64,000 bases of DNA from Candidatus Marinacidobacterales bacterium (GTDB lineage Bacteria; Acidobacteriota; Vicinamibacteria; Marinacidobacterales; SMYC01). The position numbers were made by a program, and so were the translations under genes. Below are positions 8,410 to 35,284 of this stretch, in pieces. A model generated the notes under the pieces. It ran no database searches. It was not told the origin of the DNA and was given only the letters and a program-made list of their open reading frames with translations. The DNA lies in NCBI GenBank assembly GCA_965224085.1, contig CBDCYI010000009.1:544001-608000 (forward strand), in the 5' to 3' direction. Within the stretch, counting starts at the first letter, position 1. Each line of letters begins with the position of its first letter.

Positions 8410-9069
8410 ATGACGCTCAGAATCAATGACGAAGCGCCGAACTTTAACGCAGAAACGACAGAAGGGACGGTCAACTTTCATGATTGGATTGGCGAAGGTT
8501 GGGCCATCTTGTTCTCGCATCCAAAGGACTTCACGCCGGTCTGCACGACGGAACTCGGCTATATGGCGGGGCTCAAGCCTGAGTTCGAAAAGCGCAACTG
8601 CAAGGTTCTCGGCATCAGCGTCGATGGGGTCAGCGACCACAAGAGGTGGTCGAAGGAAATCGAGGCATCCCAGGGACACGCGATCAACTATCCGCTGATC
8701 GGGGATCCAGAACTGAAGGTCGTCAAGCTCTACGACATGCTGCCGGCGGACGAGGGCGACACCTCCACCGGAAGGACGGCGGCGGACAACGCGACGGCCC
8801 GGTCCGTGTTTATCATCGGTCCCGATAAGAAGATCAAGGCGACCTTGACTTACCCGATGAGCACGGGCCGCAACTTCGATGAGATCCTCCGCCTCCTAGA
8901 CTCCTGCCAACTCACAGCGACCCACAAGGTGGCAACACCGGTCAACTGGAAACAGGGCAACGACGTGATCATTGTTCCAGCCGTGTCCGACGACGAGGCC
9001 AAGAAGAAGTATCCTGCCGGTTGGCAGTCGCCGCTACCCTACATCCGGATCGTTCCCCAACCGAAGTAG
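8410..9069 (+). CDS. 1-Cys peroxiredoxin (Prx6 type)
   Basis: FSHPKDFTPVCTTE, YPMSTGRNFDEILR, VATPVNW; GGAGG RBS before ATG 8410. Confidence 0.95.
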   Translation: MTLRINDEAPNFNAETTEGTVNFHDWIGEGWAILFSHPKDFTPVCTTELGYMAGLKPEFEKRNCKVLGISVDGVSDHKRWSKEIEASQGHAINYPLIGDPELKVVKLYDMLPADEGDTSTGRTAADNATARSVFIIGPDKKIKATLTYPMSTGRNFDEILRLLDSCQLTATHKVATPVNWKQGNDVIIVPAVSDDEAKKKYPAGWQSPLPYIRIVPQPK

Positions 9070-9368
9070 CGGAAGCATTGTATTCGTCCCGTTCCGGGGT
9101 TGTCCCAGTGGACGCCCCCGGGTAGGGGTGGAGCCGCGGCCCGGGGCTTTCCCAGACCACTGAGTAATGCGGGTTGTGCCTTCTATTTATTCATCCGCGC
9201 GCACCGAACTTGATTAGTCTCCGGTCTGCCGGCCGAGGCCATTTACTCGACGATCGCCTTTGCACTCGTTTCCTTAGGCCTGGGCGCGGAAGGTCCACCG
9301 CTCGCGGGGACACAACAAAGCCGCGATTGCTGTCGCCAACAAACTCGCCCGGATAGTCTGGGCCGTCT

Positions 9369-9506
9369 CCCGTCCTGTGCCAAAACTCGGTTCTTTTGAA
9401 ATAGGCTGCAAATCAGCAACTTAGTGTCTGTGTTTGCGACATCCCCAAGGGCCGTAGGCCGGCGCTTGGCCATGTCGTGGCTGTCCGAGTTTTGGCACAG
9501 GACGGG
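9369..9506. mobile_element. 138-bp miniature element with perfect 22-bp terminal inverted repeats
   Basis: CCCGTCCTGTGCCAAAACTCGG ... CCGAGTTTTGGCACAGGACGGG; no target duplication visible. Confidence 0.8.
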
Positions 9507-9510
9507 GTCG

Positions 9511-10338
9511 GTCAACCCGATTCTGCTTAACTAGTACCTGTCCAGAAACACCATAACTTGTGGTGTACGAGAGGCCTATCGAAGATGTGGGTATTATACG
9601 TTTTCAGTCGGCACCTCGTAGGCTCGGAAGCGAATGAAAATCTTGGACGAAACGAGAGGCGAATCGTCAGCAATCCATGGCTATAAACGCAGTAAGAGCA
9701 ATCATTATTATCGTAATAGGTGCCTTGACAGGTTGCAGGTGATGATGGAACTCCATACGTAGGATTTGAAAGAAGGCAATGAGCGCCATGTGCATCGGTC
9801 GAGACCAAAGACTCGTTTCAAGAACGAAATGACGCCTTCGATTCCGCAGCGAAATCGCCGTAGGCGTTGATAGACCCAGGAACTCTTGACCATATGGGCG
9901 CCGGAAGGTCCACCGCTCGCCGGGCCATCGAGGCACAACAAATGGCCGCGAGTTTGCTGTCGCCAACAAACTCGCCCGGATAGTCTGTTCTTCGGATCGA
10001 AACGACCTTTTCCTCCGCAGGCACACGCTCTTCATCAATCACTCTACGCCGAGTTTGGTTGTGACTTTTTCGGTGAGGACGAGAAAGTGCTTAAAATCCG
10101 TGGCGATCTTCTCCGCACTCGCTCGCTTCACCGGCTCGGTGTCGTCCAAAACGTTGAGCGGAGCGATAGGTTTCTTCCGACACCTTGTAAATAGACGCGA
10201 GGCTTCGCGTTTAGAACTCCCAGCAACTTAGTGTCAGTTGTGTTTGCGACATCCCCAAGGGCCGTAGGCCGGCGCTTGGCCATGTCGTGGCTGTCCGAGT
10301 TTTGGCACAGGACGGGGTCGATAGGTGAACTGATTCAG
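9511..10338. repeat. Scrambled, deletion-riddled copy of the ISNCY 3' end interleaved with pieces of 9280-9510 (probable consensus artefact)
   Basis: Short blocks matching 10339-11300 and 9282-9510 alternate; 10321-10338 is an 18-bp block from about 11662. Confidence 0.7.
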
Positions 10339-10361
10339 GTCAACCCGATTCTGCTTAACTA

Positions 10362-12046
10362 GTACCTGTCCAGAAACACCATAACTTGTTGGTGTACGAG
10401 AGGCCTATCGAAGATGTGGGTATTATACGTTTTCAGTCGGCACCTCGTAGGCTCGGAAGCGAATGAAAATCTTGGACGAAACGAGAGGCGAATCGTCAGC
10501 AATCCATGGCTATAAACGCAGTAAGAGCAATCATTATTATCGTAATAGGTGCCTTGCCATTACCAACAGGTTGCAGGTGATGATGGAACTCCATACGTAG
10601 GATTTGAAAGAAGGCAATGAGCGCCATGTGCATCGGTCGAGACCAAAGACTCGTTTCAAGAACGAAATGACGCCTTCGATTCCGCAGCGAAATCGCCGTA
10701 GGCGTTGATAGACCCAGGAACTCTTGACCATATCGGTCACCGCGAAGTGAGCCTTGGTAAAGGCAACATCTTCAACTCCCTTGCCTTTGATGGCTTCCAA
10801 GTTTGCCTTTGAAGAAAACGCGCCATCGTAGGCAACCTGGCGCGGGGCCCGTTCGTAGAGTTCGACTTGACGGTCGATCATGGTTTCCGCGAGAGTTGAA
10901 TCGGACGGATTCCCATCCAAGATCACGCAATCCAAAATCATCGAGGACGAGCCACCAGTCAAACACACCTTGTGACCGTAGAGAGTCTCGCGCCGGTCTT
11001 TGCGAATAATGTCGGTGTGTTCTTCGAAGATCGAAACGACCTTTTCCTCCGCAGGCACACGCTCTTCATCAATCACTCTACGCCGAGTTTGGTTGATGAC
11101 TTTTTCGGTGAGGACGAGAAAGTGCTTAAAATCCGTGGCGATCTTCTCCGCACTCGCTCGCTTCACCGGCTCGGTCAAGCCGGACTCGTCCAACTGGTCT
11201 GCAACGCGTTGAGCGGAGCGATAGGTTTCTTCCGACACCTTCAGTAGATCTCGATAGACGCGACGCCTTTGTTCCTTATCCTTCGCGTTTAGAACTCCCA
11301 GTCGACGTCTCTTCGCTCGACGCGTTCGATTGCCGAAGACCACTACTGTACCCAGCAGTTCGCGAGTTCGGCACATGAGGCGAGTGAGAACTCGGACGCA
11401 GTCATAAAGAAGCTCGGAGTCCGTAGGAGAATGAATATTCGACTCCACTACCGTGCAGTCCACTCGTACTTTTCTTCCTTTTTCGATCGCGGTCTTCTCG
11501 GCAACACTCACCAACTCTCGGTTGATTTTCTCCAGCGTTTCGAACTTCACGGCTTTGATGTTTGCTGCTAGGGTCGACTTCGACGGGCTCGGCTCTATGA
11601 TGCCGAGCTGGCAAAACGTCCGATAGCTTCGAGAGTCTGCCAAGTGAAACGCCAGCTCCCGATAGGTGAACTGATTCAGCTGCTTGACCAACAACGCCCG
11701 GAGAACCTGCTCCGCGCTCATTCCCCCACGACCAACATCGCTCCCTGCCGATGGGGTGACCGACCTCAGGTCTTGCAGTACCAGCTCATTGAGCTTAGGA
11801 TGGGCATCGAGCAGCGATGATATCGTTTCGAGTTCGCGTGCGTGCTCCAGCTCCAGCCAGGGCTCGCGAAGGCTTGGTTGTGGGTTGATCGTTTTTCGCA
11901 TTTAGGGCTGGTCTCCTTTGGAGTTAAGTCGTTTAGAATCTGCGTTTTTGTCGACTCGATACTAAACGACACTCCCTCAGAAGGCTAGCCCTAAATTTGC
12001 GATTACCCCTTTTTTCTCAACCTCTTACACCTGTCAGGACGGGTAC
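10362..12046 (-). mobile_element. ISNCY/IS5-like insertion sequence, copy 1
   Basis: Ends GTACC(C/T)GTCC; 6-bp duplication TAACTA at 10356-10361 and 12047-12052. Confidence 0.9.
10537..11901 (-). CDS. ISNCY-type DDE transposase
   Basis: 454 aa; VRVDCTVVESNIHSPTDSELL, AYDGAF, RCGIEGVISFLKR; near-identical to 26777-28141. Confidence 0.9.
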   Translation of the reverse strand: MRKTINPQPSLREPWLELEHARELETISSLLDAHPKLNELVLQDLRSVTPSAGSDVGRGGMSAEQVLRALLVKQLNQFTYRELAFHLADSRSYRTFCQLGIIEPSPSKSTLAANIKAVKFETLEKINRELVSVAEKTAIEKGRKVRVDCTVVESNIHSPTDSELLYDCVRVLTRLMCRTRELLGTVVVFGNRTRRAKRRRLGVLNAKDKEQRRRVYRDLLKVSEETYRSAQRVADQLDESGLTEPVKRASAEKIATDFKHFLVLTEKVINQTRRRVIDEERVPAEEKVVSIFEEHTDIIRKDRRETLYGHKVCLTGGSSSMILDCVILDGNPSDSTLAETMIDRQVELYERAPRQVAYDGAFSSKANLEAIKGKGVEDVAFTKAHFAVTDMVKSSWVYQRLRRFRCGIEGVISFLKRVFGLDRCTWRSLPSFKSYVWSSIITCNLLVMARHLLR

Positions 12047-12061
12047 TAACTAATAAGAAAC

Positions 12062-13300
12062 TCAGGGTGTAGCGTTGGCAAGAGGTGTGAGAGTGACGTC
12101 AAAACCGAGCTCCCTTAGGCGTCGTGTCATTCGTATTGTGAGCTGTTCCTTGTCGCGTTGATGGAAGTAATCGGCACCCAGTTCCCGGTATGGAATCTCA
12201 TTGTGGAGCATGTAGTAGACGGCGGTGATGATGGAGGCGGCGACGGCGACGACAGCTTTCTTGGGGCCCCGACGAGATTTGAGCCGGAAGAACTGGGCAC
12301 GCAGATAGCTGTCGCGCTTGCGGCTTGCCGCCCAAGCGGCTTGGACAAGAGCGGTCTTGAGCCATGGAGCCCCTTTGCGGGTTTTCTGAGAAAAGCGTTT
12401 ACCGGCACTCTCATGAAGCCGTGGGCATAGACCGGCCCAAGAGCGAAGGTGTCCGGCCGTTGGGAATGCCGAGACATCGGGTCCGATCTCGGCGACGAGA
12501 ATGGCCGCCGTGGTTTCACTGATGCCCGGGATCGTCACCAGAAGCTCGACGGCCGATCGAAAAGGGCGCAGGCTCTCTGTGATACGGGATTCGAGCGCGC
12601 TCACTGAGGCTTCAAGCTGCTCGATATGATTGAGATGAAAACCCAACAGGAAACGATGATGGTCGGTAACGTAGCCCTCGAGCGCTGCGCTCAATTCCTG
12701 TTCAGTGGCTTTGAGTCGGCTTGAGCCCAGCTCACTCAGCTTGTGAGGGTCGCTTTCTCCCGCAATGATCGCTCGGAGAATCGCCCGCCCGCTTACTCCC
12801 AAAATCGTGCTAATCACGCTCGTCAATTTGATGTTCGCGTCTTCCAACGTCTTTTGAATTCGCTGGGTCTCCCGAGCGATTTCTCGAACGAACTGCTTTC
12901 GCGTTCGGGTCAGCTCTCGCAGTTCCTGGATCGGCGTTGGCGGAACGAAGCTAGCTCGAATGAGACCATGGGCAAGCAAATCCGCTATCCACAAGGCATC
13001 ACTGATATCGCTCTTACGACCCGGCATGTTCTTGACGTGGGCCGGTTGTGCCAACACCAACTCAAAATGACCTTCGAGCACATGCCACACCGGCTTCCAA
13101 TACACTCCGGTCGCTTCCATCGCTACAATCGTGCAACCGCACTGCCCCAGCCAATCCAACATTTCCAGCAATTCGCTCGTGGCCGTGCCGAACACACGCG
13201 TCTCGCGCACCACCTTCCGCTTCGTCGCTACCCGCACGCAAGCCGTAATCGATTTCTGGTGGACGTCCAATCCGGCGCATCGCTTATGAACCACTCTCAT
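12062..13300 (-). CDS. IS110-family DEDD recombinase/transposase
   Basis: GLDVH, MEATGVYW, KSDISDA and C-terminal HESAG serine motif; GGAGG RBS before ATG 13300. Confidence 0.95.
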   Translation of the reverse strand: MRVVHKRCAGLDVHQKSITACVRVATKRKVVRETRVFGTATSELLEMLDWLGQCGCTIVAMEATGVYWKPVWHVLEGHFELVLAQPAHVKNMPGRKSDISDALWIADLLAHGLIRASFVPPTPIQELRELTRTRKQFVREIARETQRIQKTLEDANIKLTSVISTILGVSGRAILRAIIAGESDPHKLSELGSSRLKATEQELSAALEGYVTDHHRFLLGFHLNHIEQLEASVSALESRITESLRPFRSAVELLVTIPGISETTAAILVAEIGPDVSAFPTAGHLRSWAGLCPRLHESAGKRFSQKTRKGAPWLKTALVQAAWAASRKRDSYLRAQFFRLKSRRGPKKAVVAVAASIITAVYYMLHNEIPYRELGADYFHQRDKEQLTIRMTRRLRELGFDVTLTPLANATP

Positions 13301-13315
13301 CGCAGCCTCCTTCAC

Positions 13316-13529
13316 GTCGCACCGGCGTGGAGCCCACGAACTTGTAATCTAATAGACGCGCTCAACTATCCCAGCTGGAATAGAAAACGCAATTTGGGGT
13401 ACGCGCAGGACTCCCAGCCAAACTTGACAACGGGCTCAGTCGCACCAACGTTAAGCCGACCTCTGAGCCGGTGCCACCTTCACAGACTACCGCGTTTCAT
13501 TCATTCGGGGTGGCCGTCAGGCCGTGGAA
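13316..13529 (-). ncRNA. Candidate IS110 bridge RNA region
   Basis: Non-coding end containing GCTTAAC (13456-13450) and TTGTCAAGTT (13430-13421), which match the two halves of the reconstructed target; boundaries approximate. Confidence 0.65.
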
Positions 13530-13696
13530 AACTTGACAATACTCCACCCTTTGTCATCCTCTACTCAAAACGCCATGCCAACTCCTCGGCCGTGATGATC
13601 GGCATTTTGCCAACAGCGCCCAATTTTTTCGCCAGATCAAGGATCTTCTTGGTGACGTCTTCTTCAAGCTCTTTCTCTTTGTAGAAATTAACGTAG

Positions 13697-16171
13697 GATC
13701 TGTTCTACAAGCTGACTCAACGAGAAAAATCTCACGAATACCTGCGCGGGCCCCAGCAGGACGTTCTTAGGGCGTATGCTGATCTCGCTGTGGAAACACC
13801 CGACGTAGCTCTTGAGCTACCAACGGGAACAGGGAAGACTACAGTCGGTCTGCTTATTGCGGAATGGCACCGTAGGCGGACCGGAAATCGGGTCGCGTAC
13901 TTGACGCTCACGAACCAACTCGCTCGTCAAGTCCTCGTTGAAGCGGGCCGAGTGGCGGTGCCCTTCTCGGACCTGATCGGAACGAAGCGAGATCGCGATG
14001 CGGCCCAAGAAGGACATTATCTCGCTGGAGAGGCCGTCGGTGTTACTAGTTATTCAAATCTGTTCAACGTGAATCCGGTGATTCGTGAGTCACAAGTTCT
14101 CGTTTTGGATGACGCTCACGGTGGTGAACAGTACGTCGCCGCCCACTGGACCCTGATAATTTCCAAGCGGGATGATACCGAGCTTTACTCGTCGGCCATC
14201 GCGGCTTTGCGTCCAGCACTAACTGACAGTCAGCTGCGAACCATTTTGAGCCCGCAGGGAATCTCAGTCGTCGAAATTGCCGACGTTTTCAATCACCCTG
14301 CATGCATCGTGACGATGACAGACTTGATCGATCAGGCGGACTCCCAAAAAATCAAATTTAGATGGCAACAAATTAGAGAGCATATCGACGCATGCCTGTT
14401 TCTGCTTTCGTCTGACGCTATCGCGATTCGACCACTGATCCCACCCACGCACACACATGATCCATTCAGCGGTAGCTCACAGCGAGTTCTGATGTCGGCG
14501 ACGCTCGGTGGGAAGGGTGACTTACTGCGCGGTTATGGACTCCAGGACGTGGAAATCCTCCGGGCCGAGCGCCCTCAATGGGGACGTCGATACGTCTTTG
14601 TTCCCGGAATGTACTTGGACGCTGACAAGACCCATGAAGTCGTCTCTGGTGTGTGGGACAAAACAGAACCTAGGCGTGCCGTAGTTCTCGCTCCATCGAA
14701 CCGGATCGCGGACGCCACGTACGAGAAGATAAAGGAGCATGTAAGTTCGGAGCTGACAAGGATGTCAGCGACAGAGATTTCTGACGGTCTCGACTCGTTT
14801 ACGGTGGCTCAAGATACGATCCTGGTCCTCTCGGGCCGCTACGATGGTCTGGATCTTCCCGGTGACGATTGTCGATTGCTCATCATGTCCGAGAGCCCAG
14901 CGGCCGTGAACGAACTTGAGAGACATCTGCGCGATAAATGGAAGCTTGGACCTGCACTTCGACGACGAGAGAGAACGCGCTTGATTCAAGGAATGGGGCG
15001 ATGTACCAGGAGCGCGACTGATTTCTCGGTCATTCTTTGGTTAGGTCAATCGCTCGTTAACGCGGCGTCGTCAGAGTTGATGGACTCGCTCCCGGCCGAA
15101 CTTCACGGAGAGCTCAAGTGGGGCCACGAACAATCGAAGGCTACGCCCGACGAACTAGTCGAAATGATTCACGGCCTATTGGACGACAAAGATTATCGTG
15201 AGGAGGCCGACGCCTCAATCGATCAGCTTCGGTCGCAGCTGGAAGCCCAGCAACAAGAAGAAAGCGATCTCACCGCTAGCGATGAGGTGAAATTTGCGCG
15301 ATCGTTGTGGTCTGAGAATTACTCACTGGCGTACACGTTGGCGCGATCTATCGCAGATGTCCTTTCAGAGCCTGGATTCGCAGGGTGGCGAGCTTGGTGG
15401 TGGTTCCTGGCAAACATGGTTGCCGTTAAGCTGGGAAACAACGAAAGTGAACGAGACTGCCTCCGGCGGGCAAAAGCGTGTGGCATCAACTCAGGTTGGC
15501 TCGATGCCGTGATTCTAAAGCGAGCATCCGAACTATTAAACGATTCCGCCGAAGATGACGTTCCCTCCAATCTTGAACATCTCTGGGACACCCTGGAGGA
15601 ACTTGGCTGGGCTGGCCCAAAGTTTGAAAGCCAAGTAGCCGAGATGCGGTCGAACCTGGCGGACACCGATCACACTGCGTTTCACATGGGTTTGGAGAAA
15701 CTCGGTCGTTGTTTGGGGCTCGACCCAATTCGCTCAACAGAAGATGGTGCGCCTGATGTTATTTGGTCTCGTGACCCTCGGATATACGTGGCGTTCGAGG
15801 CGAAGACAGAGAAGGACTCTGAGCACGCCCTTTCGAAAAATGACCTCCGAGAAGCGAAAGGCCATGCGGATTGGATCTCGGCAAAGCTATGCGGAGGTGC
15901 TCAGGATGTGGACACATCTATCGTAGTCGTTTCACCGACGTCGAAACTTCATTTTGCCGCGGAGCCTCATGCGGAGAGCGTTTTCTATTTGTCGCCAGAA
16001 ACTGTACTGGATCTTATGGCCCAGGTTATAGATTCATTGCGCGAGATTCGCATAAAATTTGCTGGGCGCGATTTTGCGGCAGCCCGTAACGAGTTGGCTG
16101 TGGAAGTAAATAACGCTGAACTAGATGCGGAACACATCTGGGAACAGCTTACCTCTCATCCACTTAAATGA
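13697..16171 (+). CDS. SF2 (DinG-like) helicase with C-terminal PD-(D/E)XK nuclease, Hna-like; probably 5'-truncated
   Basis: LPTGTGKT, LDDAH, MSAT, DGLDLPGDDCR, QGMGRCTR, then PDVIW...FEAKTE; frame open from 13697, first GTG at 13790. Confidence 0.75.
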   Translation, partial: DLFYKLTQREKSHEYLRGPQQDVLRAYADLAVETPDVALELPTGTGKTTVGLLIAEWHRRRTGNRVAYLTLTNQLARQVLVEAGRVAVPFSDLIGTKRDRDAAQEGHYLAGEAVGVTSYSNLFNVNPVIRESQVLVLDDAHGGEQYVAAHWTLIISKRDDTELYSSAIAALRPALTDSQLRTILSPQGISVVEIADVFNHPACIVTMTDLIDQADSQKIKFRWQQIREHIDACLFLLSSDAIAIRPLIPPTHTHDPFSGSSQRVLMSATLGGKGDLLRGYGLQDVEILRAERPQWGRRYVFVPGMYLDADKTHEVVSGVWDKTEPRRAVVLAPSNRIADATYEKIKEHVSSELTRMSATEISDGLDSFTVAQDTILVLSGRYDGLDLPGDDCRLLIMSESPAAVNELERHLRDKWKLGPALRRRERTRLIQGMGRCTRSATDFSVILWLGQSLVNAASSELMDSLPAELHGELKWGHEQSKATPDELVEMIHGLLDDKDYREEADASIDQLRSQLEAQQQEESDLTASDEVKFARSLWSENYSLAYTLARSIADVLSEPGFAGWRAWWWFLANMVAVKLGNNESERDCLRRAKACGINSGWLDAVILKRASELLNDSAEDDVPSNLEHLWDTLEELGWAGPKFESQVAEMRSNLADTDHTAFHMGLEKLGRCLGLDPIRSTEDGAPDVIWSRDPRIYVAFEAKTEKDSEHALSKNDLREAKGHADWISAKLCGGAQDVDTSIVVVSPTSKLHFAAEPHAESVFYLSPETVLDLMAQVIDSLREIRIKFAGRDFAAARNELAVEVNNAELDAEHIWEQLTSHPLK

Positions 16172-32856: not shown

Positions 32857-32975
32857 GGTATTGTCAAGTTGAGGTCTCAAGCTCGAAGCGGGCCGCTAGA
32901 TGATGGGGCTTGAGCACACAGCGTTGCCAACATCTTGGGGTCGGATCGGCCCTGAATGCCTCAACTTGACAGCAA
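32857..32975. mobile_element. About 120-bp IS6-like miniature element
   Basis: TGTCAAGTTGAGG / CCTCAACTTGACA inverted repeat; same core as the IS6 end at 35269-35284. Confidence 0.6.
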
Positions 32976-33001
32976 TGGCATCGCCCGGGCGGGCGAAGGT
33001 A

Positions 33002-33210
33002 ATCGGAGACTGACCCTTTGAGATCTGTGGGAGGAAGTAGACTCCGATCGAGTGCAGCCGGGAGTCAAGGCCGAAGGTACGATGGTGCTCAGTGCCCGTT
33101 TGACAGCAAGGTCTGGAGGGTTAGCGGGAGTATCCGTGGTGGCATGTCGCGAGGCATGACCCCGTTCGAAAGAATGTTTTGAATCGCCCCTCTCTCCTGG
33201 TTGCGCCGAA
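33002..33210 (+). ncRNA. Candidate IS110 bridge RNA region
   Basis: Contains CGAAGGTAC (33072-33080), matching the reconstructed target; short inverted repeats; boundaries approximate. Confidence 0.55.
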
Positions 33211-33221
33211 AGGAGCGAGAA

Positions 33222-34610
33222 ATGGCACGTCGCGTCAGGACAAAAAGCAGTCGTCAAGCAAGACGGAAAAAATTGGAGCACGAGCTCGACACGGTAAATC
33301 TAGATGCTGCAGGGATTGATATTGGAGCGGAGTCAATCGTGGCGGCAGTCCCGAAGGGGCGCACTCCTGAGGGCGAACATGTCCGCACGTTTCAGAGCTT
33401 TGTATGCTCGCTGCGAGAGCTGGCCAATTGGCTGAAGGCGTGCGGCGTGTGCACGGTGGCGATGGAGTCGACCGGAGTTTATTGGATTCCACTGTACGAG
33501 TTGTTGGAAGACGAGGGATTTGAAGTCTATCTGGTCGATGCTCGCAAAGTGAAAAACGTATCTGGGCGCAAGTCAGACGTGTCGGATGCGGAGTGGCTGC
33601 AACAGCTGCATACATTCGGGCTACTCCCAAAAACCTTTCGGCCGGAATCGGCGATTTGCGAGCTAAGGGCATACACCCGCCAACGAAGCTCGCTGGTGGA
33701 GTCAGCGGCTCGCCACATTCAGCATATGCACAAAGCGCTCAACCAAATGGGGCTCCAGCTACAACACGTCCTGCGCGACGTGACCGGAGTCACCGGCCTT
33801 GCGATCATCCGAGCGATCTTGAGAGGAGAGCGAGATCCTCGTGACCTAGCAAAACTGAGGCATGAACGTTGCCACAACGATGAGGCCACGATCGCGAAAG
33901 CCTTAGAAGGTAACTATCGGAGCGAGCATGTTTTCGCTCTTCAACAGTCGGTGGAGTTGTACGATTTCTATCAAGAGAAAATGGAAGACTGTGACAAGCG
34001 GATCGAGAGATGCCTGTCCAAATTGGAGACCCGGCCTCAGGACGCTCGGCCTAAGCCGAAACCACGGACACGGCGAGCGCGTAGCGGCAACGGGCCGCGC
34101 TTTCCGCTCGCTGAGTCTCTATTGGGACTCACGGGGGTGGACCTAACCAGGGTTCCCGGCTTAGGTAGCTATGCCGTTCTGCAGCTCGTAGGAGAAACCG
34201 GTTGCGACATGAGCCCGTGGAAAAGTGACAAGCACTTCACCTCATGGCTAGCTCTCGCACCGAATAATAAGGAGTCCGCTGGTCGAATCTTTCGCCGGGC
34301 CACCCCAATGAGCTCCAGTCGTGCTGCAAAACTCTTTCGCCTCGCCGCGTGCGCTGTCCGCAATACCCAAACCGCGCTCGGCGCTTTCTATCGACGAATC
34401 CGATCGCGACGAGGTGCTCCAAAGGCCATCACAGCTACCGCCCGTAAAATAGCGACCATCTACTTCCGCATGCTTGCGACTGGAGAGGAGTTCATTGAGC
34501 TCGGTCAGGACGCCTATGAAAGGCAATACCAGCAACGCCTCCTGAGTAATCTCCGACGCAAAGCTACCCGACTCGGCTTCAGCCTCGTTCCCGATCAATC
34601 CATATCATGA
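33222..34610 (+). CDS. IS110-family DEDD recombinase/transposase
   Basis: AGIDIG, MESTGVYW, KSDVSDA, NNKESAG; AAGGAG RBS. Confidence 0.95.
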   Translation: MARRVRTKSSRQARRKKLEHELDTVNLDAAGIDIGAESIVAAVPKGRTPEGEHVRTFQSFVCSLRELANWLKACGVCTVAMESTGVYWIPLYELLEDEGFEVYLVDARKVKNVSGRKSDVSDAEWLQQLHTFGLLPKTFRPESAICELRAYTRQRSSLVESAARHIQHMHKALNQMGLQLQHVLRDVTGVTGLAIIRAILRGERDPRDLAKLRHERCHNDEATIAKALEGNYRSEHVFALQQSVELYDFYQEKMEDCDKRIERCLSKLETRPQDARPKPKPRTRRARSGNGPRFPLAESLLGLTGVDLTRVPGLGSYAVLQLVGETGCDMSPWKSDKHFTSWLALAPNNKESAGRIFRRATPMSSSRAAKLFRLAACAVRNTQTALGAFYRRIRSRRGAPKAITATARKIATIYFRMLATGEEFIELGQDAYERQYQQRLLSNLRRKATRLGFSLVPDQSIS

Positions 34611-34645
34611 AAAATGCCTTCGGCCGGGAGTGTCAGTCGAAAGTA

Positions 34646-35284
34646 CCATCACGGTTTCCTACGAAGCGATCCGACTTTGGTGCATCAAGTTCGGGCCGGA
34701 ATACGCTCGGCGACTGAAGCGTCGGCAGGGTCGTCTCGGTGACACGTGGCACCTAGACGAGGTCTTCATAAAGATACAAGGTGAACGCCAATACCTCTGG
34801 CGTGCGGTAGACCAAGATGGTGATGTAATTGATATCCTCGTCCAGCCTCGTCGTGATCGGAAAGCCGCGAAACGATTCTTCCGCAAGCTGTTGAAGGGGC
34901 AAGGCCGTCCGCCCTGGCAGCTGGTCACCGACAAACTGAGAAGCTACAGTGCCGCTCACCGCGAGGTCATGCCGTCCGTCGTCCACGACACTGACCAGTA
35001 CAGAAACAACCTAGCCGAAGTCTCGCACGAACCGACGCGACAACGGGAACGACAGATGCGGAAGTTTAAAACTCCTGGGCAGGCGCAACGATTCTTGACC
35101 GTGCACGGACTCGTGCAAAACCTCTTTCGCGTCGGACGGCATTTGTTGCAAGCGCATCATCATCGGGAGCTACGAGACCGCGCTTTCATCGTCTGGCAGG
35201 AGGTAACCTGTGCCGTCCGATGAGAGCAAAGGAAGTCAGCTCGACGCGATAGGTTCGCTCGCTCAACGTCAACTTGACAATATT
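34646..35284 (+). pseudogene. IS6-family transposase lacking its N-terminus, with right inverted repeat
   Basis: VSYEAIRLW, WHLDEVF, YLWRAVDQ, TDKLRSY, NNLAEVSHEPTR; end TCAACTTGACAATATT. Confidence 0.88.

Follow-up and report, generated by a model that had tools for sequence, protein, structure and literature searches.

Elements of the IS110 family reportedly use the terminal inverted repeats of other mobile elements as insertion sites: IS1383 is said to insert into the inverted repeats of IS1384, and IS4321 and IS5075 into the terminal repeats of the Tn21 family. For IS621, the portions of the published accounts compared here assign the 5' strand of each RNA loop to the left guides and the 3' strand to the right guides (PMC11208160, PMC11208158). 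In IS1111-type elements the match to the top strand lies 5' of the match to the bottom strand, the RNA is encoded downstream of the transposase gene, and subterminal inverted repeats of 7–17 bp are present; ISEc21, the sole IS110-type element tested in the same work, has the guide order opposite to theirs (Siddiquee et al. 2024, PMC11187229, in the parts compared). ISPpu9 of Pseudomonas putida is described, in the compared part of the report, as an IS110-family element with a repeated target and separately moving modules (PMC12288879).

The window, a 64,000-nt stretch of the genome of a Candidatus Marinacidobacterales bacterium, contains transposases which are assigned by Pfam and NCBIfam to the IS110, IS6 and ISNCY families. 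Its segment 12052–13531 is very probably an IS110-family insertion sequence (type A; the copy in the window is copy A) that chooses its site via a bridge (seek) RNA encoded in its left end. The mechanism as such is already known; the locus is a clean natural example of it with an unusual guide order. The element, its recombinase and its junctions are located as follows.

12052–13531, minus strand: IS110-family element type A, 1480 bp excluding the core copies; ends defined by the genome copies.
12062–13300, minus strand: IS110 recombinase gene, 412 aa from ATG (417 aa from GTG at 13315); PF01548 and PF02371.
13532–13533, minus strand: left-end junction with the core dinucleotide AG (plus-strand CT); AG is invariant at both junctions in 28/28 aligned relatives.
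12050–12051, minus strand: core dinucleotide AG at the right-end junction; the end TATTAG is followed by variable flanks at 20 junctions.
13534–13546, minus strand: left target flank (GAGTATTGTCA), like an IS6-type terminal repeat; from the copies' junctions and foreign contigs.
10339–10358, minus strand: right target flank (TTAAGCAG... on the minus strand); second copy at 9511–9530.
10362–12046, minus strand: ISNCY element, inserted later across the right-end junction of the IS110 element; NF033593 at 438 bits.

The recombinase consists of an N-terminal DEDD (RuvC-like) domain (PF01548, E 4e-28) and a C-terminal Tnp domain (PF02371, E 8e-24), and scores 293 bits against NF033542, 'IS110 family RNA-guided transposase' (cut-off 140). 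Together with the non-coding end, the RNA fold and the covarying guides, these domains assign the element to the IS110 RNA-guided family on sequence grounds. As far as IS621 is described in the compared portions, type A resembles it in possessing a DEDD/Tnp recombinase and, encoded in its left end, a structured RNA, in having target and donor loops (each built as stem-guide-hairpin-guide-stem), in one guide that repeats the left flank plus core and another complementary to the core plus right flank, in a 2-nt core common to donor and target, and in two extra bases after a guide, at the handshake guide position. It differs in the size of the recombinase, which has about 412 aa in type A and 315–330 aa in the IS621/IS492 branch (Siddiquee et al., PMC11187229, in the parts compared).

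Both ends of type A are fixed by its copies in the genome: eight full (98–100% identity), two or three partial and 15 miniature. The two ends measure 216–231 nt (left) and about 10 nt (right); the longest inverted match they share is 5 nt, and there are no terminal inverted repeats. The miniature copies keep 66 nt of the left end and 67–75 nt of the right end. Type A resembles ISPpu9, within the described part, in belonging to the IS110 family, in having a repeated target and in possessing modules that move separately; in contrast to ISPpu9, its miniatures retain just these two terminal segments, without guide loops.

In copy A the right-end junction is interrupted by the ISNCY element, which is flanked by TAACTA on either side (10356–10361 and 12047–12052). 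A direct repeat of at least 6 bp is found at the junctions of 28 of the 31 full-length genome copies of this ISNCY, which justifies its removal together with one TAACTA. Subsequent removal of the IS110 element rebuilds the site with the sequence and coordinates that had been claimed in the earlier note. The 24-nt flank to the left of the ISNCY (10338–10361) has a second copy at 9510–9533, adjoining a degenerate ISNCY copy (9534–10223), so that the secure original right-target sequence is only about 20 nt long. AACT, previously taken for the core, is indeed present on the plus strand at both IS110 junctions (12049–12052 and 13530–13533), but relatives share AG alone. The obligatory core is thus AG (CT on the plus strand) and not AACT. 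Comparison with relatives identifies the TT following it as the first two bases of the element itself; target duplication beyond the core is absent, AG alone being common to the junctions.

The guide motifs GCTTAAC (13456–13450) and TTGTCAAGTT (13430–13421) are separated by 19 nt on the minus strand. Both are found where they had been reported, and both match the insertion site obtained after removal of the ISNCY and one TAACTA. They belong to the following set of guides and RNA segments.

13450–13456, minus strand: right target guide GCTTAAC, 5' strand of the target loop; complementary to core G + TTAAGC of copy A.
13421–13430, minus strand: left target guide TTGTCAAG + UU, 3' strand of the target loop; equal to left flank + core + first two element bases.
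13349–13356, minus strand: left donor guide box TCTATTAG; its TATTAG (13354–13349) matches the right end of the element.
13318–13475, minus strand: predicted bridge RNA core, closed by the long-range helix P1 (13475–13467 with 13326–13318); RNAalifold consensus of 28 sequences.
13416–13419, minus strand: 3' arm of helix P2, closing the target loop; pairs with 13461–13458.
13431–13447, minus strand: invariant hairpin P3, separating the two target guides; five pairs kept in 28/28, no covariation, one invariant U:G.
13329–13414, minus strand: donor loop region, closed by helix P4 (13414–13404 with 13338–13329); 8 pairs with double changes.

Type A is site-specific: all 24 left junctions across the genome end with GTCAAG (23 of them with TGTCAAG), and among the 15 informative right junctions 13 begin with TT and 10 with TTG. 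The word TGTCAAGTT occurs five times in the window against 0.30 expected, a number reached by none of 100 shuffles, and the TTGTCAAG box is the left flank in all nine full or near-full type A copies as well as in the miniature copies. As the word is found at every left junction, copies within one genome cannot separate flank from element, and TGTCAAGTT could be thought to belong to the element, with its ends misplaced and the internal copy serving as a protein-bound subterminal direct repeat instead of an RNA guide. This is extremely improbable. Where copies are arranged in tandem, another copy's right end (CTTATTAG) takes the place of TGTCAAG before the left end; the word is present without any insertion at 31 uninterrupted IS6 ends; and in relatives the flank words differ and the internal box changes along with them. 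The tandem copies also contain the natural right-end/left-end junction. Recombination would proceed through a circle, as in IS621. No sigma-70-like promoter was detected by scanning this junction and the left end.

The relatives used for testing the guides have proteins 56–66% identical to that of type A, and the motif was found by the search pattern at 60 of 85 loci. At 56 of these 60 the box aligned to TTGTCAAG is identical to the element's own left flank, with 26 distinct guides; in these 56 the last 5–8 nt of the box plus TT recur 95–132 nt upstream (at least 7 nt in 49). The right flanks of the relatives are complementary to the box that aligns with GCTTAAC, with a score reached by none of 5000 permutations. 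The mean longest complementary run between this box and its cognate flank is 3.62, the permuted value being 3.04 (sd 0.12; 0/5000); the same measure per box gives 4.38 vs 3.26 (0/5000). The best examples have nine contiguous pairs (L065) and six each (L063 and L043). In many relatives the right guide matches weakly: 26 of 42 box/flank pairs have no run longer than 3. Among the type A sites, the match is best in copy A (7/7), most others pairing at 5–6 positions, with G:U wobble. CTTAAC, found in the window and in L032, is changed to CTCAAC in a 96%-identical copy from another genome (L043), where it perfectly matches its own flank G-TTGAG (flank TTGAGG). It is a natural single-base reprogramming of the right guide.

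A 7-nt match like GCTTAAC is not rare in about 200 nt and the folding of the single sequence is unremarkable; the two motifs might on these grounds be chance matches, the protein alone choosing the site. Set against three boxes that covary with three DNA partners in relatives, and against the conserved helices, such a coincidence is scarcely credible. The alignment of flanks across copies and homologues, where the guides of relatives track their own flanks, supports the proposal of the earlier note that both motifs would act as bridge-RNA guides, one in the same sense as the site and one complementary to it.

The third box is the left donor guide. In 51 of 54 relatives it reproduces the sequence of the element's right end, and 21 distinct boxes occur. 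The donor loop, which had not been resolved by eye, is thus resolved by covariation as to its left guide; no diagonal for the right donor guide emerged when the alignment columns were paired one by one with the element's first 13 bases, a comparison of low power because these bases are too highly conserved. A right guide of the canonical order was also sought 3' of TTGTCAAGTT. The candidate AGTTGAG (~13369–13363) was rejected as being of the wrong sense; it consists of the end of a variable hairpin and the conserved GAGCGCG.

In the consensus of 28 sequences the left end has a conserved two-loop structure. Double changes are found in 16 of the 33 consensus pairs, five of them in helix P1; P2 (GGUC/GACC) shows compensatory changes (GAUC/GAUC in two sequences) plus wobbles. 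Paired cells amount to 96.2% vs 88.7% in shuffles (0/500 reach this value) and double-change cells to 81 vs 20.5, and pairing falls to 34–43% when the 3' partners are slid. Only the alignment fold is useful here, since single-sequence folds of the left end gave misleading structures and did not surpass shuffles (z = −0.63 and −1.31); Rfam gives no match in 9000–15000 even at E up to 1. The spacer common to types A and B was at first read as a conserved sequence and is actually hairpin P3.

The order of the guides on the sense strand is the reverse of that in IS621, as the latter is described in the compared portions, and a functional RNA antisense to the transposase would restore the usual order. 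The conserved helices argue against such an RNA. One P3 pair is U:G in 28/28 sequences and another is G:U in 10/28, with further G:U pairs in P1, P2 and P5; these would turn into A-C mismatches on the other strand, and therefore the helices fit only the transposase-sense strand. Moreover, the first guide of the antisense RNA would have the same sense as the right half of the site, an arrangement that is likewise unusual. An antisense RNA is accordingly very improbable.

In the transposase-sense RNA core (13475–13318, minus strand) the two loops would be enclosed by a long closing helix. The 3' strand of the target loop would carry UUGUCAAG, identical in sequence to the left flank followed by the core AG, and in this way would pair with the bottom strand; the following two U correspond to the first bases of the element and would occupy the handshake-guide position. 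The 3' strand of the donor loop would carry UAUUAG, i.e. the right end of the element plus core. The RNA is presumably transcribed and bound by the recombinase. RNA-library contigs from two metatranscriptome runs cover 13179–13439 at a depth of ~3, which is a weak hint and no proof of transcription; they come from Logan contigs of 24 listed public runs, which give no starts, ends, strand or circle junctions, and in which uncovered parts of the element are uninformative.

The layout of type A coincides with neither of the described ones, as far as the compared parts of the sources go. In the IS621/ISEc21-type architecture the left guide is 5', the right guide is 3' and the core is CT, whereas type A has its right target guide 5' and both left guides (target and donor) 3', with an AG core when read in transposase sense (CT on the opposite strand). 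The IS621 model therefore does not hold for the guide order. With the IS1111-type architecture type A shares the guide order, but its RNA region is upstream of the gene and its longest inverted match of 5 nt stands in place of the subterminal repeats. The literature searched contains no reversed order with upstream RNA, although it may be shown in Fig. 6d or the supplementary data of PMC11208160, or in Supplementary Fig. 2 of PMC11187229. The 35% identical element in genome G010, considered as a positive control for the usual order, was dropped since it has the same reversed order.

It is possible, though short of an even chance, that the long-recombinase branch of IS110 (types A and B, the 56–66% identical relatives and the G010 element) uses a third layout, with the RNA upstream, both loops inverted and an AG core, that types A and B split the ends of IS6 between them, and that each of the two has given rise to miniatures without guides, which would have to borrow the RNA in trans. 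In such a layout the right guides would lie on the 5' strand and the left guides on the 3' strand of both loops, and the recombination frame would be flipped relative to transcription. The guide order and the AG core mean that the strand-reading rules of IS621 are not transferable unchanged to this branch. These loop-strand rules matter for predicting or designing the guides of new orthologues.

The elements which bear on the nature of the target are as follows.

35267–35284, minus strand: right inverted repeat of an IS6 copy (transposase 34630–35223); from comparison of IS6 ends.
32857–32874, plus strand: tip of an IS6-type miniature (GGTATTGTCAAGTTGAGG); copies in genome G033 have this miniature family as their target.
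32973–34641, plus strand: second IS110-family element, type B (recombinase 33201–34610); from its guides and protein family.
33076–33080, 33099–33106 and 33165–33172, plus strand: type B guides GGTAC, TTTGACAG and TTCGAAAG.

The IS6 element is ~810 bp long, with a DDE transposase recognized by NF033587 (162 bits) and PF13610. Its ends GGTACTGTCAAATTGAGC and GGTATTGTCAAGTTGACG are short terminal inverted repeats starting with GG and identical at 14 of 18 positions. Both sequences formerly named as IS6 ends (at 32857 and 35269–35284) are IS6-type, but the one at 32857 is the tip of a miniature element and not of an IS6 copy. The preferred site of type A, TTGTCA-AG-TTG(A/G), forms the tip of terminal inverted repeats of the IS6 type. 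Such tips are those of the right end of the resident IS6 and of the IS6-type miniatures, so that many insertions land in mobile DNA. The resemblance of the target to IS6 ends, pointed out earlier, was confirmed in part, and the link is real but partial. In 11 of the 24 left junctions the guide-matched bases come after the IS6-type tip GGTA(T/C) (six exact, five with one change). The site of copy A is IS6-like for ~15 nt only. Contigs of other organisms match its left flank to 13542/13543 (as far as GTATTGTCAAGTT) and then diverge; beyond ~20 nt its right flank has no IS6-type similarity above chance in comparison with all 16 distinct interiors, 298 and 48 of 300 shuffles scoring at least as well.

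The match to IS6 may be incidental: the guides specify ~12 nt and the tips are where the word is commonest, with no adaptation of the element to IS6. Only one of the 32 bona fide IS6 right ends is occupied (C4:169782-171258), 31 being empty despite a perfect left-guide match; 8 of the 24 left flanks lack the IS6-type tip, and four are situated where another IS110 ends; of the genome's 99 TGTCAAGTT words, about three quarters lie in mobile elements, where any element with this guide would land. On the other hand, copies in genomes G033 and G016, one of them from a different family, are also located within IS6-type terminal repeats, the guide variant CUCAAC perfectly matches the tip of a miniature element, and a second IS110 with unrelated guides in the same genome is abundant at the other IS6 end. 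An incidental match is, in view of this, rather unlikely, with an appreciable residual chance. The IS6 tips may have been selected as a safe harbour instead of being a side effect of where the motif is common, and the locus fits the idea of other mobile DNA as a harmless landing pad for IS110 elements.

No IS110-family element targeting IS6 ends was found in the literature searched. Type A shares with IS1383 and IS4321/IS5075 the IS110 family and a site in the terminal inverted repeat of another mobile element, the difference being that its target is IS6 and miniature derivatives. The insertion of IS1383 into IS1384, as reported, is an older and closer precedent than the analogy with IS4321 and Tn21 drawn in the earlier note. 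With ~40 type A insertion events (element plus miniature derivatives), one natural reprogramming and a second element for comparison, the locus is a well-documented natural case of bridge-RNA targeting. That second element, type B, aims at the end of the same IS6 opposite to that used by type A, and 18 of the 32 IS6 left ends hold type B or its 75-bp derivative.

The region 9500–13550 is a nest of insertion sequences in a host genome (6.87 Mb, 12 contigs) crowded with such elements. Re-reading of the sequence bore out all coordinates and motifs that the earlier note gave for 10351–13545. The nest includes:

12052–13531, minus strand: type A IS110-family element (copy A), with recombinase gene 12062–13300 (PF01548, PF02371, NF033542)
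10362–12046: ISNCY element, TAACTA duplicated on landing

The IS110 element arrived first and ISNCY later, across the right-end junction of the IS110. In the whole genome, 28 of the 31 full-length ISNCY copies are flanked by a duplication of at least 6 bp, the 6-bp duplications being mostly TANNTA (e.g. TAGCTA, TAACTA); an internal ISNCY 20-mer has ~66 matches. The 24 nt at 10338–10361 are repeated at 9510–9533 beside a degenerate ISNCY copy, so that the original right flank of copy A is secure for only ~20 nt. The interval 9481–10361 contains a local duplication, in which a stretch ending in GGTCAACCCGATTCTGCTTAACTA is present twice, each time with ISNCY sequence following it. The first duplicate is followed by the degenerate ISNCY (9534–9898 at 97% identity and 9983–10223 at 83%), and the end of yet another element lies directly left of each duplicate.

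The observation that the guides of type A match its own insertion site is confirmed. The relatives comprise 80 loci from the related-locus search, whose recombinases are 56–66% identical; several occur in more than one copy per genome. The element ends were set by comparing copies within one genome, and the left ends align well. The left target guide box (8 nt, aligned to TTGTCAAG) always ends with AG in the relatives. The left-guide motif pattern matched 60 of 85 loci, and in 56 of these 60 the last 5–8 nt of the box plus TT are repeated 95–132 nt further upstream, precisely on the left junction (match of at least 7 nt in 49 of those loci; 26 distinct boxes). The left donor guide box (aligned to TCTATTAG, 13356–13349) exists in 21 distinct versions, and in 51 of 54 loci it is identical to the element's right end. 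Through this box one half of the donor loop, which could not be made out by eye in the earlier note, is now resolved.

In the relatives, the right target guide box (the one aligned to GCTTAAC) shows complementarity to the right flank. The longest complementary run is 9 at locus L065, 7 in the window copy, 6 at loci L063 and L043 and 5 at locus L126. Its mean is 3.62 for cognate pairs vs 3.04 (sd 0.12) for permuted ones, and 4.38 vs 3.26 with one value per distinct box; in both cases none of 5000 permutations reaches the cognate value. The signal is uneven, the run being 3 or less in 26 of 42 box/flank pairs. A 96%-identical copy in another genome (G033) has CTCAAC in place of CTTAAC and matches its own flank TTGAGG perfectly.

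The consensus fold of the RNA was predicted by RNAalifold from 28 sequences and consists of the following helices:

P1, 13475–13467 with 13326–13318: long closing helix
P2, 13461–13458 with 13419–13416: closes the target loop
P3, inside the target loop between the two target guides: invariant hairpin
P4, 13414–13404 with 13338–13329: closes the donor region

Support for this consensus structure is good. Pairing is found in 96.2% of cells vs 88.7% in shuffles (0 of 500 shuffles reach it), and 81 cells are changed on both sides vs 20.5 in shuffles; sliding the 3' partners by 1–3 columns lowers the pairing to 34–43%. G:U pairs are numerous in the consensus helices, including one U:G in 28 of 28 sequences, which fits an RNA on the transposase-sense strand only. 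Contigs from two metatranscriptome runs cover 13179–13439 at a depth of ~3, as well as one miniature copy; these contig-level data are a weak hint of expression. No sigma-70-type promoter was found at the natural tandem right-end/left-end junction or in the left end. Upstream of P1, towards the 5' side of the left end (columns 34–41 of the left-end alignment, window 13500–13493), is a near-invariant AUGAAAC that the miniature copies retain. It is complementary to GTTTC, which is just as conserved and in all relatives lies 8–12 nt from the right end. This pair could serve as an additional donor contact or as a protein site.

Type A is a well-supported new member of the bridge/seek-RNA-guided IS110 family, and the bridge-RNA reading proposed earlier stands with corrections to the core and the guide order. 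As described in the relevant passages of PMC11208160 and PMC11208158, IS621 has a CT core, and each of its loops carries the left guide, which pairs with the bottom strand, on the 5' strand and the right guide on the 3' strand. In type A, by contrast, the 5' strand carries the right target guide and the 3' strands carry the left target and left donor guides; the core, without exception, is AG in transposase sense. On the opposite strand, the layout becomes the usual IS621-like one with a CT core, and the two U after UUGUCAAG then occupy the position of the handshake guide, as in IS621. These two U match the TT with which all aligned elements start; the corresponding bases of type B, the second IS110-family element of the window, are CA, and that element starts with CA. 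The core had previously been taken as AACT. Its AG part is obligatory, whereas TT simply happens to come next in the donor as well as in the target that type A prefers, which explains the four-base reading.

In the sections of Siddiquee et al. (PMC11187229) that deal with guide order, IS1111-type elements have the top-strand match first, and the single IS110-type element tested there has the opposite order. The present elements share their guide order with the IS1111 type but differ from it in two respects: their RNA region precedes the gene, and they lack subterminal inverted repeats (longest 5 nt). The same guide order is found in a 35%-identical element of another genome (G010). This inverted guide layout, which may already have been described elsewhere, is the main side result of the analysis.

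The genome holds 8 full copies of type A (98–100% identity), 2–3 partial ones and 15 miniature copies of ~133–141 bp (e.g. G000:C9:26874-27006 and C9:751923-752063; none of the 15 inside the window). The miniatures retain left-end nt 1–66 and the last 67–75 nt and have no guide loops; since they occupy the same TGTCA-AG sites, they have to be mobilised in trans. A contig joint of 12127 to 13464 in X7, a public run from another organism, shows this deleted form as well. All 24 left junctions end with GTCAAG, and 23 of them with TGTCAAG. At tandem junctions CTTATTAG precedes the left end instead, so TGTCAAG is part of the target and not of the element. Of 20 right junctions, an unrelated 545-bp repeat interrupts 3 and tandem copies account for 2; the 15 informative ones start with TT in 13 cases and with TTG in 10. 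The ~545-bp repeat occurs from G000:C9:27009 onward and at ~30 further places, is preceded by TTA in all 30 flanks inspected, and has cut right ends of type A or its miniatures at TTATTA at least 4 times, including those of three miniatures.

Type A inserts preferentially at the tips of IS6-type inverted repeats. The resident IS6 (~810 bp, roughly 35 copies) has the ends GGTACTGTCAAATTGAGC (left) and GGTATTGTCAAGTTGACG (right), and miniature elements with an IS6-type tip are also present, e.g. at window 32857. The left flanks of type A (24 in all) are as follows:

GGTA(T/C) directly before the guide-matched bases: 6
GGTA(T/C) tip with one change, window copy included: 5
end of a type B element: 4
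tandem copy: 1
no IS6-type tip: 8

One true IS6 right end is occupied by type A and 31 are empty. Both type A copies of G033 lie at tips of the miniature family that is also seen at window 32857, and in a further genome (G016) the flank of the type A copy resembles the IS6 right end. The resemblance of the copy A site to an IS6 end, pointed out before, holds over ~15 nt and not beyond; no IS6-like interior was seen on comparison in the right flank of copy A. Contigs of other organisms agree with the window left flank up to and including GTATTGTCAAGTT and differ from there on.

The IS6-targeting point is made better by type B:

32973–34641, plus strand: type B element, 469-aa recombinase, RNA layout as in type A with different guides
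guide GGTAC: complementary to G-TACC
guide TTTGACAG: equals flank + AG
guide TTCGAAAG: equals the type B right end

Combined, these guides give the initial 12 nt of the IS6 left end, with the cut at GGTA-CT-GTCAAA. Of 32 IS6 left ends, 18 carry type B or its 75-bp derivative (13 miniature, 5 full or rearranged), and type A is in turn inserted 4 times at a junction made by type B. Targeting the tips of another element's repeats is a known habit, reportedly with precedents in IS1383/IS1384 and IS4321/Tn21. In the window, the right end of type B abuts IS6 ~170 bp inside it, and for this reason the IS6 copy at 34647–35284 has no left part. One IS6 left end elsewhere (G000:C4:1694570-1695205) reads GGTACT-TTCGAA-TTGAG instead of GGTACT-GTCAAA-TTGAG, and the changed bases are those of the type B right-end tip; this may be an excision footprint or a product of half-site recombination.
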